5,172 nt of DNA from a virus (IMGVR_UViG_2778261249_000003:1-5172), one strand, 5' to 3'. Counted from the first letter of the stretch, positions 1 through 5,172 are shown. A program made the numbers and translations. The notes: generated by a model from the sequence alone, not told the origin.

Positions 1-534
1 CTGCGTATTCAGCAGGCGTTTGAAGGTTTAAGCGTCGCCGGGTCGGTGGGGGCCTATCAGTATCATGGTCGCAGTGCCGACGGGCGTGTCGCGGATATTT
101 CTGTCACCAGTCCGTCTCCGGCCTGCGTCACCATCTCTGTGCTGTCACGTGAAAATAACGGTGTGGCATCCGAAGACCTGCTGGCGGTGGTGCGCAACGC
201 CCTTAATGGTGAGGACGTCAGACCGGTGGCCGACCGTGTGACCGTGCAGTCTGCCGTCATCGTTGAATACCAGATAAATGCCACGCTTTACCTTTATCCT
301 GGCCCCGAAAGCGAACCCATTCGCGCTGCCGCCGTGAAAAAATTGGAAGCGTATATCACGGCACAGCACCGGCTGGGGCGCGACATCCGACTGTCTGCCA
401 TTTATGCCGCTTTGCATGTGGAAGGCGTGCAGCGTGTCGAACTGGCTGCACCGCTGGCCGACATCGTGCTCAACAATACGCAGGCGTCTTTCTGTACCGA
501 ATACAGCGTCGTGACCGGAGGCTCGGATGAGTGA
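1..534 (+). CDS. J: Baseplate assembly protein J, C-terminal part (5' end lies outside the window)
   Basis: Frame 1 is open from nt 1 with no stop until TGA at 532-534; the ORF track's start at 46 is an internal GTG. Sits directly upstream of the tail protein I homolog and overlaps its start (ATGAGTGA at 527-534), the J-I-H order of P2-like tail clusters. Assignment rests on synteny and recalled similarity, not a search. Confidence 0.8.
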   Translation: MRIQQAFEGLSVAGSVGAYQYHGRSADGRVADISVTSPSPACVTISVLSRENNGVASEDLLAVVRNALNGEDVRPVADRVTVQSAVIVEYQINATLYLYPGPESEPIRAAAVKKLEAYITAQHRLGRDIRLSAIYAALHVEGVQRVELAAPLADIVLNNTQASFCTEYSVVTGGSDE

Positions 535-1138
535 TTCGCGACTGCTGCCGACCGGCTCATCACCGCTTGAAGTCGCTGCCGCAAAAGCCTGTGCGGAAAT
601 TGAAAAAACGCCGGTCAGTATTCGTAAGCTGTGGAACCCGGACACCTGCCCGGCAAATCTGCTGCCGTGGCTGGCGTGGTCATTTTCGGTTGACCGCTGG
701 GATGATAAGTGGCCGGAAGCGACAAAACGCGCTGTTATCCGCGATGCGTATTTCATTCACTGCCATAAGGGCACTATAGGCGCAATCCGGCGTGTGGTGG
801 AGCCGCTCGGCTATCTGATTGAGGTGAGGGAGTGGTGGCAGCTCAACGAGGAGCCGGGGACGTTCCGCATCGTTGTTGGCGTGCTTGAGCAGGGTATTAC
901 CGAGGAAATGTATCAGGAGCTGGAGCGCCTCGTTACTGATGCAAAACCGGCAAGCCGCCATCTGACGGGACTGGCTATCAGTTTAAGTACAACCGGCAAC
1001 ATTTTTGCCGGTGCGGGATGCTATCACGGCGACGCCCTGACGGTTTATCCCTACACCCCGGAGGCCATTATTGTCGGAGGGGATTATTTCCCGGCCTCGG
1101 CCATTCATTTAATTGATAACCTGAGAGTAAACGCATGA
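527..1138 (+). CDS. I: Phage tail (baseplate) protein I
   Basis: 203-aa ORF starting MSDSRLLPTGSSPLEVAAAKA. GGAGG at 517-521 lies 5 nt upstream of ATG 527. Start overlaps the J stop and the stop (1136-1138) overlaps the H start (ATGA at 1135-1138). Position between J and the tail fiber gene. Confidence 0.88.
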   Translation: MSDSRLLPTGSSPLEVAAAKACAEIEKTPVSIRKLWNPDTCPANLLPWLAWSFSVDRWDDKWPEATKRAVIRDAYFIHCHKGTIGAIRRVVEPLGYLIEVREWWQLNEEPGTFRIVVGVLEQGITEEMYQELERLVTDAKPASRHLTGLAISLSTTGNIFAGAGCYHGDALTVYPYTPEAIIVGGDYFPASAIHLIDNLRVNA

Positions 1139-2502
1139 CAGTGAAATACTACGCCATTCTGACTAATCAGGGCGCGGCACGGCTGGCTAACGCGACGATG
1201 CTCGGCAGTAAGCTGAATCTGACGCAAATGGCCGTTGGTGATGCGAATGGTGTCTTGCCGACACCAGACCCGGCACAGACAAAACTGATTAATCAGAAAC
1301 GCATTGCACCGCTGAATCTTCTGAGTGTTGACCCGAACAACCAGAGCCAGATTATTGCGGAGCAAATCATCCCTGAGAACGAGGGCGGATTCTGGATCCG
1401 TGAGATTGGGCTTTATGATGATGAAGGCGTACTCATTGCGGTGGCGAACTGCCCGGAAACGTACAAACCGCAGTTGCAGGAAGGCAGTGGTCGTACCCAG
1501 ACTATCCGCATGATTCTGGTTGTCACGAATACCGAAGCTATTACGCTGAAAATCGACCCATCGGTGGTACTGGCGACCCGTAAATACGTGGATGATGAAG
1601 TCCTGGAATTAAGGCTGTATGTGGATGAACAGATGAGAAACCACATTGCCGCACAGGATCCTCATACCCAGTATGCACAGAAACATAATCCGACATTTAC
1701 CGGAGAACCAAAAGCGCCGACGCCTGCCGCAGGAAATAACACCACGCGGATTGCGACCACTGAGTTTGTTCAGGCCGCTATTACCGCTCTGATTAACGGT
1801 GCGCCAGCCACGCTGGACACACTGAAAGAAATTGCCGCAGCCATTAACAATGACCCGAAATTCAGCACCACCATTAACAATGCGCTGGCACTGAAAGCTC
1901 CGCTGTCGAGTCCCGCACTTACCGGAACGCCAACAGCACCTACTGCGGCACAGTCGGTCAACAATACACAGATTGCCACCACGGCTTTTGTGAAATCAGC
2001 AATTGCGGCAATGGTGGGTTCTGCCCCTGCGGCACTGGATACACTGAATGAACTGGCGGCGGCGCTGGGGAATGACCCTAACTTTTCAACAACAGTGCTT
2101 AATGCACTGGCAGGCAAACAACCGCTGGACAATACGCTGACTAATTTGAGTGGAAAGGATGTTGCTGGTCTTCTCGCATACCTTGGTTTGGGAGAAGCGG
2201 CAAAACGGAATGTGGGAACAGGGGAAAATCAGATACCTAGTATGTCAGAATGGACATCTGGGACAGGATGGAATAGAGACCCGTCGGGGAGAATAATACA
2301 GCGGGGATTTGCTATGACATCAAGTCAAACTAACATTTTATTCCCGATACCATTTCCGTATGACGATTTCGAAGTTATCGTTTGTGCAGCAGATACAGGA
2401 GCAAATAAAGGGGCCGTAAATGTGTTGCGAAAATCGAGGCAGGGGTTTTCTGTTTCACAGGTTGGAAGTATGCCAGTCGCATACAGATGGATAGCGGGGT
2501 GA
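1135..2502 (+). CDS. H: Tail fiber protein H: constant N-terminal shaft (aa 1-350) plus the currently expressed variable C-terminal tip (aa 351-455)
   Basis: 455-aa ORF. N-terminus (MTVKYYAILTNQGAARLA...MAVGDANG...GGFWIREIGLYDDEGVLIAVAN) is typical of P2/Mu-type tail fiber N-terminal domains. Contains two tandem ~75-aa repeats in the shaft. The left 26-bp crossover site lies in-frame at 2171-2196 (codons L-L-A-Y-L-G-L-G-E). Sequence downstream of the site is AT-richer. Confidence 0.9.
   Translation: MTVKYYAILTNQGAARLANATMLGSKLNLTQMAVGDANGVLPTPDPAQTKLINQKRIAPLNLLSVDPNNQSQIIAEQIIPENEGGFWIREIGLYDDEGVLIAVANCPETYKPQLQEGSGRTQTIRMILVVTNTEAITLKIDPSVVLATRKYVDDEVLELRLYVDEQMRNHIAAQDPHTQYAQKHNPTFTGEPKAPTPAAGNNTTRIATTEFVQAAITALINGAPATLDTLKEIAAAINNDPKFSTTINNALALKAPLSSPALTGTPTAPTAAQSVNNTQIATTAFVKSAIAAMVGSAPAALDTLNELAAALGNDPNFSTTVLNALAGKQPLDNTLTNLSGKDVAGLLAYLGLGEAAKRNVGTGENQIPSMSEWTSGTGWNRDPSGRIIQRGFAMTSSQTNILFPIPFPYDDFEVIVCAADTGANKGAVNVLRKSRQGFSVSQVGSMPVAYRWIAG
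2171..2196. other. Left crossover site for DNA inversion (gix/cix/pix-like, 26 bp): TTCTCGCATACC-TT-GGTTTGGGAGAA
   Basis: Two 12-bp half-sites around a 2-bp core (TT at 2183-2184). The right half-site GGTTTGGGAGAA is the exact reverse complement of the left half-site of the 3954-3979 site. Perfect 15-bp inverted repeat: 2183-2197 TTGGTTTGGGAGAAG versus 3953-3967 CTTCTCCCAAACCAA. Half-sites fit the TTnTCnnAAACC-type pattern of Hin/Gin-family sites. Confidence 0.85.
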
Positions 2503-2507
2503 TTGAA

Positions 2508-2945
2508 ATGTATAAATTTGATCCAAAGAATGCATTATTCTATCCTGCCGCGTCAATTTCCGATTATAAATTGAGCGAAGATGAAATCGCCACATTCACT
2601 GATATTAGCGAGGAGGATGCAACCGAGTTTTTAGGATTCCCGCCGACTGGAAAAATCAGAGGGTCGGACGGTTATGGCAATCCTGCATGGGTTGAAATAC
2701 CTCCACCATCACATGAGGAACTTATTGAACAGGCCGAATCAGAGAGGCAATTATTGATTAACCATGCCAACGAATACATGAACAGTAAACAATGGCCTGG
2801 TAAAGCGGCTATTGGTCGTCTGAATGGTGAGGAACTGGCGCAATATAATTTGTGGCTGGATTATCTGAACGCACTGGAACTGGTTGATACCTCCAGTGCG
2901 CCAGATATTGAATGGCCTACGCCTCCGGCAGTTCAGGCCAGATGA
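2508..2945 (+). CDS. Tail fiber assembly (chaperone) protein, expressed orientation
   Basis: ORF ending ...LAQYNLWLDYLNALELVDTSSAPDIEWPTPPAVQAR, the conserved C-terminal motif of phage tail-fiber assembly proteins. ATG 2508 is preceded by GGGG at 2496-2499 (8-nt spacer) and follows the H stop (2500-2502). An in-frame ATG at 2487 would overlap H by 16 nt and has no obvious SD, so the start is ambiguous between 2487 and 2508. Confidence 0.8.
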   Translation: MYKFDPKNALFYPAASISDYKLSEDEIATFTDISEEDATEFLGFPPTGKIRGSDGYGNPAWVEIPPPSHEELIEQAESERQLLINHANEYMNSKQWPGKAAIGRLNGEELAQYNLWLDYLNALELVDTSSAPDIEWPTPPAVQAR

Positions 2946-3510
2946 CATCCGGCGCGGTGCTGGTATCTGTTGCCGTCACCGCGTCAATGTAATCCAGCAC
3001 AGCGTTAAGTCGGGTGGTTTCTGCCTGCGTCAGTTTACGTCCGGCCTGCAATTTCAGTTGAATCAGACTGATGGAAGCCATTGCAGTATCAATCAGCGAC
3101 TGGCGCTGTGCTTCTGCTGCATCTACTGCGGCGCTATGCTGTGCCTCAGTATCTGTCACCCATTTCTCACCATCCCATTTATCGTATGGCGTTAACGGTG
3201 AAAGCGTGACATAACCGTCTTTGATGGCACCGATATAATCCACTGTAACAGCTGCGCCATTTTCGATTGAGTAAACAGTCTCATTGCGGTGGTCTTCTTC
3301 ATGGCTCCATCCCTTACCCGTAAATACTGCCACTTTCCCCGGAATGTATTCGCCCGGGTCAATACCAGTGGAACAGGCGGGCATACTTACGCCAGTATTA
3401 ATATATTCATCAGACCAGCCCGTATACTCAGATGTTTCAGCATCATAATAAAAACAACGCATATCGCCCGGCACTGTAGCCAGCCCATTTTCATCAAAAA
3501 CAGGTTTCAT
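2917..3510 (-). CDS. Tail fiber assembly (chaperone) protein, alternate copy (Tfa') inside the invertible segment
   Basis: 197-aa minus-strand ORF with C-terminus ...LNAVLDYIDAVTATDTSTAPDVIWPELPEA, the same motif as the + strand chaperone, but an unrelated N-terminal half. Its ATG (3508-3510) overlaps the stop of the upstream minus-strand fiber cassette (TAATG). GAGGG lies about 9 nt upstream on the minus strand. Its 3' end overlaps the + strand chaperone gene by 29 bp (2917-2945). Confidence 0.85.
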   Translation of the reverse strand: MKPVFDENGLATVPGDMRCFYYDAETSEYTGWSDEYINTGVSMPACSTGIDPGEYIPGKVAVFTGKGWSHEEDHRNETVYSIENGAAVTVDYIGAIKDGYVTLSPLTPYDKWDGEKWVTDTEAQHSAAVDAAEAQRQSLIDTAMASISLIQLKLQAGRKLTQAETTRLNAVLDYIDAVTATDTSTAPDVIWPELPEA

Positions 3511-4007
3511 TATTTAGCCCTCACCAGAAAGTTAAATGCAATATTTCGCGGTCTGACAGCAACAAAATTCACACCATCACCCACAGAGTTACTGGTGAAA
3601 TTAAATCGTGAAAATCCTGGCTGATTTCCGGCGATGCCATCATGAAAGTTAATTGCGTGTCCCGCACCTCCGCCTATATTCCCGGCAAACTGAGAAAAGT
3701 TTGTAGCTTCCTGCCAGCTTAATAATTCGCGACCACCATCGGCACCTCGCCCGTCATCCCAGATACGAATGAAATCACCGCGGGCTTCAGGTAATACCAG
3801 TGAAGGAAACACTTTCGCCAGCACAGGGTAATCAGAGGCAGAAAATTTCGCCCCGTTGAACTTCAAAAACACCATACTGGACCAGCTGTCGATTACAGTA
3901 TTTGGCATTGCAGCGGACGGCCAGAAGAACGGAACGCCAATAGCTGGAGCACCTTCTCCCAAACCAACGTTTATGAAAATGCAGAGATAACGGGCAAGTG
4001 GCATCAT
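3510..4007 (-). CDS. Silent alternative tail fiber C-terminal cassette (Sv'-like; tail-collar-type receptor-binding tip), not joined to a fiber N-terminus in this orientation
   Basis: Minus-strand ORF, 165 aa as drawn from a Met-Met at 4007. The right crossover site (3954-3979) lies within it, encoding G-L-G-E in the same codon phase as the left site in H. The downstream 151 aa (GAPAIGVPFFWPS...LPEARGDFIRIWDDGRGADGGRELLSWQ...) carry a motif recalled as the phage tail-collar domain. Functional extent after inversion would be 3510..3966 fused to H codons 1-350. Confidence 0.75.
   Translation of the reverse strand: MMPLARYLCIFINVGLGEGAPAIGVPFFWPSAAMPNTVIDSWSSMVFLKFNGAKFSASDYPVLAKVFPSLVLPEARGDFIRIWDDGRGADGGRELLSWQEATNFSQFAGNIGGGAGHAINFHDGIAGNQPGFSRFNFTSNSVGDGVNFVAVRPRNIAFNFLVRAK
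3954..3979. other. Right crossover site for DNA inversion (26 bp): TTCTCCCAAACC-AA-CGTTTATGAAAA, inverted relative to the left site
   Basis: Core AA at 3966-3967 is TT on the minus strand. The reverse complement TTTTCATAAACG-TT-GGTTTGGGAGAA matches the left site in its core and entire right half. Located 55 bp upstream of the invertase start codon. Confidence 0.85.
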
Positions 4008-4034
4008 CTCCGGTTTTTATTCAGGGGGATGCTC

Positions 4035-4628
4035 ATGCTTATTGGCTATGTACGCGTGTCAACAAATGACCAGAACACGGAATTGCAGCGTAACGCGCTG
4101 GAGTGCGCAGGATGTGAGCTGATTTTTGAGGATAAAATCAGCGGCACGAAGTCCGACAGGCCGGGGCTGAAAAAACTGCTCAGAACATTATCGGAAGGTG
4201 ACACTCTGGTTGTCTGGAAGCTGGACCGGCTGGGGCGTAGTATGCGGCATCTGGTCATTCTGGTTGAGGAGCTGCGCGAACGCGGCATTAATTTTCGCAG
4301 CCTGACGGATGCCATTGATACCAGTACGCCGATGGGGCGTTTTTTCTTTCATGTGATGGGTGCCCTGGCTGAAATGGAACGAGAGCTCATTGTCGAGCGG
4401 ACTCGGGCCGGGCTGGAAGCGGCCAGAGCCAAAGGTCGTATTGGTGGCAGACGTCCTAAACTCACCGCGAGTGAGTGGGAGCAGGCCGGGCGTTTGCTGG
4501 CTGCAGGGGAGTCACGTCAACGCGTGGCACTGATTTTTGATATTGGTCTGTCCACGCTCTATAAAAAATTTCCCTCATCAGCGACAAAGAATAAATTGTG
4601 TCATCCCTTAGCCAACCGGGACAAATAG
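4035..4628 (+). CDS. Serine-recombinase DNA invertase (Gin/Cin/Pin/Hin family)
   Basis: Translation MLIGYVRVSTNDQNTELQRNAL...LVVWKLDRLGRS...GINFRSLTDAIDTSTPMGRFFFHVMGALAEMERELIVERT...RIGGRRPKL... has the resolvase/invertase catalytic domain with the nucleophilic Ser at codon 9 (TCA 4059-4061) and a C-terminal HTH region. AGGGGG at 4023-4028 lies 6 nt upstream of ATG 4035. The ORF-track start at 4029 would leave no spacer after that SD. The gene lies immediately outside the right crossover site, as in the Gin/Cin/Pin arrangement. Confidence 0.93.
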   Translation: MLIGYVRVSTNDQNTELQRNALECAGCELIFEDKISGTKSDRPGLKKLLRTLSEGDTLVVWKLDRLGRSMRHLVILVEELRERGINFRSLTDAIDTSTPMGRFFFHVMGALAEMERELIVERTRAGLEAARAKGRIGGRRPKLTASEWEQAGRLLAAGESRQRVALIFDIGLSTLYKKFPSSATKNKLCHPLANRDK

Positions 4629-4687
4629 CCTGACATCTCCGGCACAACTGAAAATACCACTCACCCATTAACCACGGAGTTGAACGG

Positions 4688-5172
4688 ATGAGTGACTATC
4701 ATCACGGCGTGCAGGTGCTGGAGATTAACGACGGCACCCGCGTCATTTCCACCGTATCCACTGCCATTGTCGGCATGGTCTGCACGGCCAGCGATGCGGA
4801 TGCGGAAACCTTCCCCCTCAATAAACCGGTGCTGATTACCAATGTGCAGAGCGCAATTGCAAAGGCCGGTAAAAAAGGCACGCTGGCGGCATCGTTGCAG
4901 GCCATCGCCGACCAGTCAAAACCGGTCACCGTTGTCGTGCGTGTGGAAGACGGCACCGGCGACGATGAAGAAACGAAACTCGCGCAGACCGTGTCCAATA
5001 TCATCGGCACCACCGACGAAAACGGCCAGTACACCGGACTGAAAGCCCTGCTGGCGGCGGAGTCGGTAACCGGTGTTAAACCGCGTATTCTCGGAGTGCC
5101 GGGACTGGATACCAAAGAGGTGGCTGTTGCACTGGCATCAGTCTGTCAGAAGCTGCGCGCTTTCGGGTATAT
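4688..5172 (+). CDS. FI: Tail sheath protein FI, N-terminal part (3' end lies outside the window)
   Basis: ATG at 4688 preceded by GGAG at 4676-4679 (8-nt spacer). Frame is open to the window end (161 codons, no stop); the six-frame track omits it for lack of a stop. Translation [54 protein letters not shown]... matches my recollection of the P2 FI sheath N-terminus. Confidence 0.88.

Follow-up and report, generated by a model that had tools for sequence, protein, structure and literature searches.

The closest described relatives of the locus reported here are the DNA inversion systems of Hin, Gin, Cin and Pin. In the hin system, the two Fis sites are reported to lie 47 bp apart between centers and the proximal one about 100 bp away from hixL, and this short loop limits further rotations (PMC3798978). 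The sequences ATTTA and TAATG occur between the hin Fis sites, in a segment that faces helix B of Hin. Lys47, Arg/Lys48 and Lys/Arg51 of helix B face the enhancer spacer and set Fis/enhancer-dependent invertases apart from resolvases, and Gln151, Arg154 and Leu155 of the DNA-binding domain, which touches Fis, likewise separate the two groups (PMC3798978). Characteristic features of a Fis core are Y-R steps at +/-3/4 and a terminal G/C; a G/C-containing center, a missing G at -7 and a G at -8 are unfavorable for high-affinity binding (PMC4784862). Phase-variable inversion in P2-like E. coli prophages was demonstrated by sequencing in EPEC E2348/69 (PMC4272514). Fels-2, with its invertase Fin, is a further P2-like prophage with an invertible tail-fiber locus, and the reports on these two loci leave the enhancer unmapped.

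We analyzed a 5,172-bp stretch of DNA (referred to as the window), which is the tail-fiber end of a P2-like E. coli prophage. The window matches chromosomes of poultry isolates, for example E. coli E5 (NZ_CP104521), over its full length at 99.8% identity. Of 5426 complete E. coli genomes, 3902 contain partial matches; the number of matching places per genome has a median of 2 and reaches 13. The locus is a member of the Pin/Gin class of Din systems situated in a P2-type tail operon; it belongs to a well-understood system and does not depart from the known kind. Its genes are as follows.

1-534: 3' end of the baseplate J gene (Pfam Baseplate_J)
527-1138: gpI (Pfam Tail_P2_I)
1135-2502: gpH tail fiber (Pfam Phage_tail_fib), with the constant part at 1135-2182
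2508-2945, plus strand: tail-fiber assembly protein (chaperone) 1 (Caudo_TAP is among the Pfam matches in the window)
2917-3510, minus strand: tail-fiber assembly protein 2 (Pfam)
3510-4007, minus strand: open reading frame with no Pfam match
4035-4628, plus strand, stop codon included: DNA invertase, a small serine recombinase of the Gin/Pin/Cin/Hin type, 197 amino acids (Pfam and homology)
4596-4624, plus strand: activator-binding site of the P2 late promoter PF (by alignment to P2 AF063097, 17555-17583)
from 4688: 5' part of the sheath gene FI (Pfam sheath protein)

The order J - I - H - (G) - PF promoter - FI is that of a P2-type (Peduoviridae) tail module. P2 backbone sequence extends from ~4596 onward, and the PF activator site and the start of FI are nearly identical to those of P2. 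The two assembly genes at 2508-2945 and 2917-3510 are convergent, and their 3' ends overlap by 29 nt (2917-2945) in the middle of the invertible segment. The PF activator site maps to 4596-4624 and thus shares bases with the end of the invertase coding sequence; the backbone carrying this annotated Ogr/activator-binding site covers the final 11 codons and the stop codon (4596-4628). The C-terminal tail of the invertase starts past residue ~181, at the point of divergence from Gin and Cin, and owing to this overlap its end is encoded by a promoter element. Homologous invertases adjoin gpH-like genes in Fels-2 and in phage pro483; the invertase region of pro483 is 96.7% identical to the window at the nucleotide level, and phages of the Fels-2 type carry remoter homologues.

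The first-pass annotation had described a serine-recombinase catalytic region with the serine at codon 9, and this is borne out by both domain and alignment evidence. The protein has the architecture of a small serine recombinase, namely an N-terminal catalytic domain containing Ser9 (Pfam Resolvase, residues 3-135, E 3e-52) followed by a C-terminal helix-turn-helix (HTH_7, residues 138-181, E 1e-12); in the NCBIfam search of the protein no model reached its cut-off. The closest solved structures are those of Mu Gin (3UJ3/4M6F, E 1e-94), and protein identity is 76% with Gin, 79% with Cin and 63% with Hin. The codon of the catalytic serine (TCA, 4059-4061, plus strand) falls in an invariant column and aligns with catalytic Ser10 of Hin; S9, R7, R65 and R68 are all invariant columns with Hin, Gin and Cin. 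The reading frame is unbroken, and every invariant residue of the catalytic domain is present. RefSeq makes an identical 594-nt coding sequence call in a prophage at 99.9% identity. An alternative ATG exists at 4029, but every relative aligns on 4035, and that start is preceded by a GGGGGA Shine-Dalgarno sequence at 4024-4029.

Residues that distinguish Fis-dependent invertases are also in place. Aligned to K47, R48 and K51 of Hin, the window protein has K46, K47 and R50, and aligned to Q151, R154 and L155 it has Q150, R153 and L154. Residue 114 of the invertase is Met. This is the position of the Gin change M114V, which makes that enzyme Fis-independent. The Hin change H107Y is activating (PMC4817059), and the corresponding position of the window protein is occupied by the wild-type residue, His106. 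With wild-type residues at the activating positions and with the residues that contact Fis, the invertase looks like a regulated wild type and not an enhancer-independent form.

The longest inverted repeat in the window, 2171-2197 / 3953-3979, resolves to two 26-bp sites that delimit the invertible segment.

2171-2196: left crossover site, 26 bp, TTCTCGCATACC-TT-GGTTTGGGAGAA, core dinucleotide 2183-2184, inside the tail-fiber gene
3954-3979: right crossover site, 26 bp, reverse complement TTTTCATAAACG-TT-GGTTTGGGAGAA, core dinucleotide 3966-3967
2183-3967: invertible segment, 1785 bp
2183-2502 and 2508-2945, plus strand: parts of the segment in the present orientation
2917-3510 and 3510-3967, minus strand: the alternative parts of the segment

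The two sites form an inverted pair with imperfect 12-bp half-sites and a TT core common to both (on opposite strands), and they agree with the half-site consensus of the family at 18 of 20 positions. The segment holds two alternative tail-fiber C-termini, each with its own assembly chaperone. As initially described, the invertase lies outside the segment: the right site ends at 3979, exactly 55 bp (3980-4034) before the ATG at 4035, and the gene reads away from the segment.

The arrangement closely resembles that of e14. Two E. coli loci (L005 and L006, ~1.2 Mb), which we take to be e14, carry an invertase 87% identical to that of the window, the same site and a 67-nt spacing. The P segment of e14 measures 1797 bp as compared with 1785 bp here, and like the window segment it contains two tail-fiber ends and two chaperones, with the invertase outside and pointing away. 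PMC12529663 prints its crossover repeat as TTGGTTTGGGAGAAGG, which is identical to window 2183-2198. Whereas e14 is a lambdoid remnant, the cassette in the window belongs to a P2-type tail operon (J, I, H ... FI) that seems complete, and the C-terminal tail of its invertase is longer than that of Pin, running into the P2 PF promoter region. Mu has the same layout, with the invertase downstream of the segment and 67 nt from crossover center to start codon (68 nt in the window), and differs in phage type and in the variable parts of the tail fiber. The hin gene, in contrast, lies within its own segment and switches a flagellin promoter, whereas the window invertase is outside and switches the coding end of a tail fiber. 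Two Salmonella loci (L084 and L085) encode an identical Hin protein with the flagellin gene on opposite sides of hin, and are thus the two orientations of the H segment in different assemblies.

The segment does invert between the two sites, and both orientations exist in nature. When 2183-3967 is inverted in silico, the constant part of gpH joins the minus-strand reading frame in frame, giving an alternative fiber of 501 amino acids. E. coli E7 (NZ_CP104523) and APEC17 both contain the right junction predicted for this inverted form, with 100% identity over 500 nt, and the native junction is present in E. coli E5 and others. The E7 locus aligns to the window in three blocks, 1-2197 (plus, 99.9%), 2183-3970 (minus, 99.9%) and 3953-5172 (plus, 99.3%); the ends of these blocks place the breakpoints within the two crossover sites. 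That a 99.9% identical prophage exists in exactly the predicted inverted form argues that the switch works. Among E. coli genomes the native junction was counted 248 times and the inverted one 8 times, which is not a ratio of orientations, since the two queries hold different variable fiber ends. In seven related loci from draft genomes (L007, L016, L017, L018, L021, L023 and L033) the contig breaks off 66-92 nt upstream of the invertase, that is, at the site, which is consistent with the effect expected from mixed orientations in the sequenced culture.

In E7, RefSeq splits the tail-fiber gene (L086:1418-2923) into two partial pseudogene pieces. The DNA over the block corresponding to window 1-2197, which includes the constant part of the fiber gene, is free of gaps and has just 3 mismatches, and the pseudogene call is probably an annotation artefact of the alternative fiber fusion.

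The first-pass annotation expected a Fis-dependent enhancer in the 5' coding region of the invertase. An enhancer is annotated at nt 19-90 of cin in the P1 record and at nt 19-86 in the P7 record, and across this stretch the window aligns base for base and without gaps with cin of P1 and P7, gin of Mu and hin of Salmonella. Identity to P1 is 81% over the enhancer stretch and 69% over the remainder of the gene. The corresponding features in the window are listed below.

4053-4124: predicted recombinational enhancer, by homology to P1 cin nt 19-90
4057-4071: proximal Fis core-like 15-mer TGTCAACAAATGACC, center 4064 (register +/-1 nt), aligning with hin TGTCAACAATTGACC
4072-4104: enhancer spacer, variable in sequence and fixed in length
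4105-4119: distal Fis core-like 15-mer GCGCAGGATGTGAGC, center 4112, aligning with hin GTGCAAATTGTGACC

The expectation was therefore correct as to the 5' end of the gene, the enhancer occupying nt 19-90 and not nt 100-200, and the candidate string singled out around 4056-4080 overlaps the proximal core. The gap-free alignment to Gin, Hin and Cin that had been proposed as a check places both Fis-like sites at the family spacing: their centers are 48 bp apart, with 47 bp between the central base pairs, so that the hin spacing matches that of the window if the published 47 bp is read as intervening base pairs. The ATTTA and TAATG of hin align to the enhancer spacer of the window. The two putative Fis sites, ~48 bp center to center, are thus recognized at the sequence level.

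Both cores match the family consensus exactly. The distal core is an exact match to GNNYRNNNNNYRNNC, is identical to that of P1 cin and agrees with Mu gin at 13 of 15 positions; the proximal core agrees with P1 cin at 14 of 15. In the proximal core the Y-R steps at +/-3/4 and the C at +7 are found in 31 of 31 family members. The proximal dyad is GTCAA-N3-TTGAC in hin, and the aligned arms in the window are GTCAA and ATGAC; the proximal register could be one base off, as it rests on dyad symmetry and spacing and not on a footprint. Some features would not favor tight binding. The center of the distal core contains G/C (GGATG), as it does in gin and cin, whereas the center in hin is A/T-rich (AAATT), and the proximal core has no G at -7 and a G at -8, both of which it shares with hin.

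The Fis sites of hin are homologous in position and equal in spacing to those of the window, and the two proteins share the Fis-contact residues and the basic residues of helix B. From the crossover center (3966/3967) to the proximal core center the distance in the window is ~97 bp, as compared with a site-enhancer loop of ~106 bp in Hin. In P1, cin lies upstream of its segment and cixL is at the 3' end of cin, which separates the enhancer from the closest site by ~500 bp. Experimental tests exist for the Mu enhancer, whereas that of the window is predicted from its sequence.

Across the family, the distance from crossover center to start codon is 58, 67/68 or 77/78 nt, with 121 and 129 nt in two loci, in a survey covering loci L003-L035 and L084, a small sample in which each spacing class may be one clade. 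Measured as far as the proximal Fis site, the classes become ~87, 97 or 107 bp, and these steps of ~10 bp suggest one fixed helical face for site and enhancer.

This interval was also proposed to hold the invertase promoter (3980-4034), possibly overlapping the right crossover site. The sigma-70 consensus scan of 3800-4750 found no promoter on the plus strand, and a looser scan gave weak candidates only. There is nevertheless a conserved element in the proposed interval.

3999-4007, plus strand: conserved TGGCATCAT (block TGGCAT(N)(N)T), candidate extended -10 of the invertase promoter

In the window, TGGCAT precedes the start codon by 35-36 nt. The same holds for 8 of 9 relatives whose site-to-start spacing is 67/68 nt, among them Mu, where it is at the same upstream position. 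The block fits an extended -10 (TGnCATnnT) in which the key A and T are conserved. With a -35 element at ~3976-3984, the promoter would reach into the crossover site and cover its outer 4 bp, which makes autoregulation conceivable. Conservation of the block thus hints that 3999-4007 might be the invertase promoter and that it might be autoregulated through the overlap with the crossover site. Other signals in the vicinity are terminator-like hairpins at 4271, 4326 and 4511, all within coding sequence.

The same block resembles a sigma-54 -24/-12 element, TGGCAT-N7-GC. Its GC is present in the 8 TGGCAT relatives (L003-L005, L008, L012, L013, L018 and L022), and L033, a Mixta locus whose spacing is of the 77-nt class, carries a perfect TGGCAC-N5-TTGCT. 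Compared with its relatives, the window shows a 1-nt insertion, and GG replaces GC (region 3999-4016). An unlikely reading of these patterns is that the family is under constraints that have gone unrecognized, short-loop Din systems being locked to a helical face and TGGCAT-N7-GC being a promoter of sigma-54 type rather than a weak sigma-70 promoter. If true, a sigma-54-type promoter would be an unsuspected regulatory input to inversion.

Fis motifs are degenerate, and their occurrence in the window is not significant by itself. A two-site pattern has 1 match (4060-4119) as compared with 0.88 expected per window in shuffled sequence, and a single-core pattern has 12 matches as compared with 23.7 expected. 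The Fis scan suggested for the 5' region thus returned one pair at the right place, but at a frequency expected by chance. The motif is too degenerate for a scan of the matrix type to settle the question of the enhancer, and the scan was rejected as evidence for it.

We therefore turn to synonymous variation among homologous genes. Relatives were collected from 80 genomic loci, and the test was carried out on 30 distinct coding sequences with at least 70% protein identity. For each of 180 codon columns, we counted pairs with the same amino acid and different codons and normalized the result by the gene-wide value for that amino acid; 135 of the 180 columns were usable. The five most constrained of these 135 are codons 25, 9, 12, 11 and 26, all within the cores. 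The lowest independent four-codon windows are codons 9-12 (4059-4070), the lowest in the gene, and 24-27 (4104-4115), and the spacer codons 14-23 between them are unconstrained (synonymous ratio 1.1). For the core set defined beforehand from the hin alignment (codons 8-12 and 24-28), the mean ratio is 0.42 as compared with 1.04 elsewhere (Mann-Whitney p = 1.4e-6), and the predicted placement of the two-block mask is the lowest of 130 possible along the gene. The sequences share descent, and comparison of columns within one alignment controls for kinship in part only. Pairwise identities show the same pattern: between the window and P1 the cores are 93% identical, the spacer 67% and the remaining gene 69%, and between the window and Mu the cores are 90% identical, with 67-70% for the spacer and 69-70% for the remaining gene in the two phages.

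The constraint is limited to two patches, each of ~12 bp, at a distance of 48 bp; it points to selection on the DNA itself, and this is the signature that would be expected of two protein-binding sites laid over coding sequence. With an enhancer predicted by homology at 4053-4124 and two cores under synonymous constraint, the expectation of an enhancer in the 5' coding region is upheld.

The islands might instead serve another function of the DNA or RNA in which Fis has no part, such as mRNA structure, translation start, an accessory site for the invertase, or an internal or antisense promoter. Synonymous constraint is common at the 5' ends of genes, and codon 4 is constrained too; the Fis motif match is not significant by itself, and the sole promoter-like match near the enhancer is on the minus strand (4216-4187). 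That match, however, is outside both islands; the second island (codons 25-27) is 70-80 nt into the gene, beyond the unconstrained spacer; and both islands coincide with the annotated enhancer sites of cin and the aligned sites of hin. We consider such a function improbable as the explanation of the islands.

Both cores, with Y-R steps and terminal G/C, are kept in 30 of 31 family members, hin included. The sole member without them is an invertase from Rosenbergiella sp. YN46 (L026:2501-2600), which has TATCGACGAGCGATC / AAGCTGGTTGCGATT at the corresponding positions. It is 77% identical to the window protein, and 58 nt upstream of it lies a crossover site of very good quality; this invertase may work independently of an enhancer, or its enhancer may be located elsewhere.

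A more distant, GC-rich recombinase of the transposon type (64% identical; L038-L083) encodes nearly the same peptide (VSTQDQN vs VSTNDQN) with other codons, and lacks both Fis cores. Its copies are nearly all identical, for which reason it served the synonymous test as a qualitative contrast only and not as a negative control. In 32 loci it is nucleotide-identical over the 540 nt compared, and these loci span distant genera, among them Thauera, Acidovorax, Yersinia, Pantoea and Psychrobacter. We presume it to be a mobile element that has spread widely.

Least probable of all is that the enhancer is an inherited relic beside an inactive or Fis-free invertase, the two orientations having arisen otherwise or through an invertase acting in trans: Din invertases cross-complement, as PinE, PinQ and PinR each invert the e14 P segment with the same repeat (PMC12529663), many E. 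coli genomes carry several such genes, as the counts of matching places given above show, and the promoter region has the 1-nt insertion noted above, but the reading frame is intact with its invariant catalytic residues and wild type at the known activating positions, the cores are the exact family consensus, and the breakpoints of the inverted form in E7 fall exactly in the cognate sites.

With its gene, its two sites, an enhancer homologous to those of cin, gin and hin, cores selected at the DNA level, Fis-contact residues and both orientations present in nature, we read the locus as a working Din-family inversion switch of a P2-like E. coli prophage, equipped with a two-site Fis enhancer, and put the probability of this reading at roughly 0.85. 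By analogy with Hin, Gin and Cin, from which Fis binding, Fis dependence and the geometry of the invertasome are inferred, such a switch would operate as follows. Dimers of the invertase would bind the 26-bp sites at 2171-2196 and 3954-3979, and dimers of host Fis would bind 4057-4071 and 4105-4119, bending the DNA. At a branch of supercoiled DNA, both invertase-bound sites would come together with the enhancer to form the invertasome, in which Fis would activate tetramer formation and double-strand cleavage. One 180-degree rotation of subunits followed by religation would leave 2183-3967 flipped, and the short loop of ~97 bp would limit further rotations, as in hin. Each such event would exchange the C-terminal receptor-binding part of the tail fiber together with its chaperone.

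As a discovery, the locus carries little weight; the expectation of the first-pass annotation was right, and the system is of a familiar type. Its enhancer can now be placed at 4053-4124, within a prophage invertase that RefSeq names just "recombinase family protein". Enhancer and coding sequence share the same bases here, and recoding or codon-optimizing the first 30 codons would therefore probably cripple inversion. The locus probably also leads to broken assemblies and, in genome annotation, to pseudogene calls. For the prophage itself, it makes the specificity of the tail fiber phase-variable.
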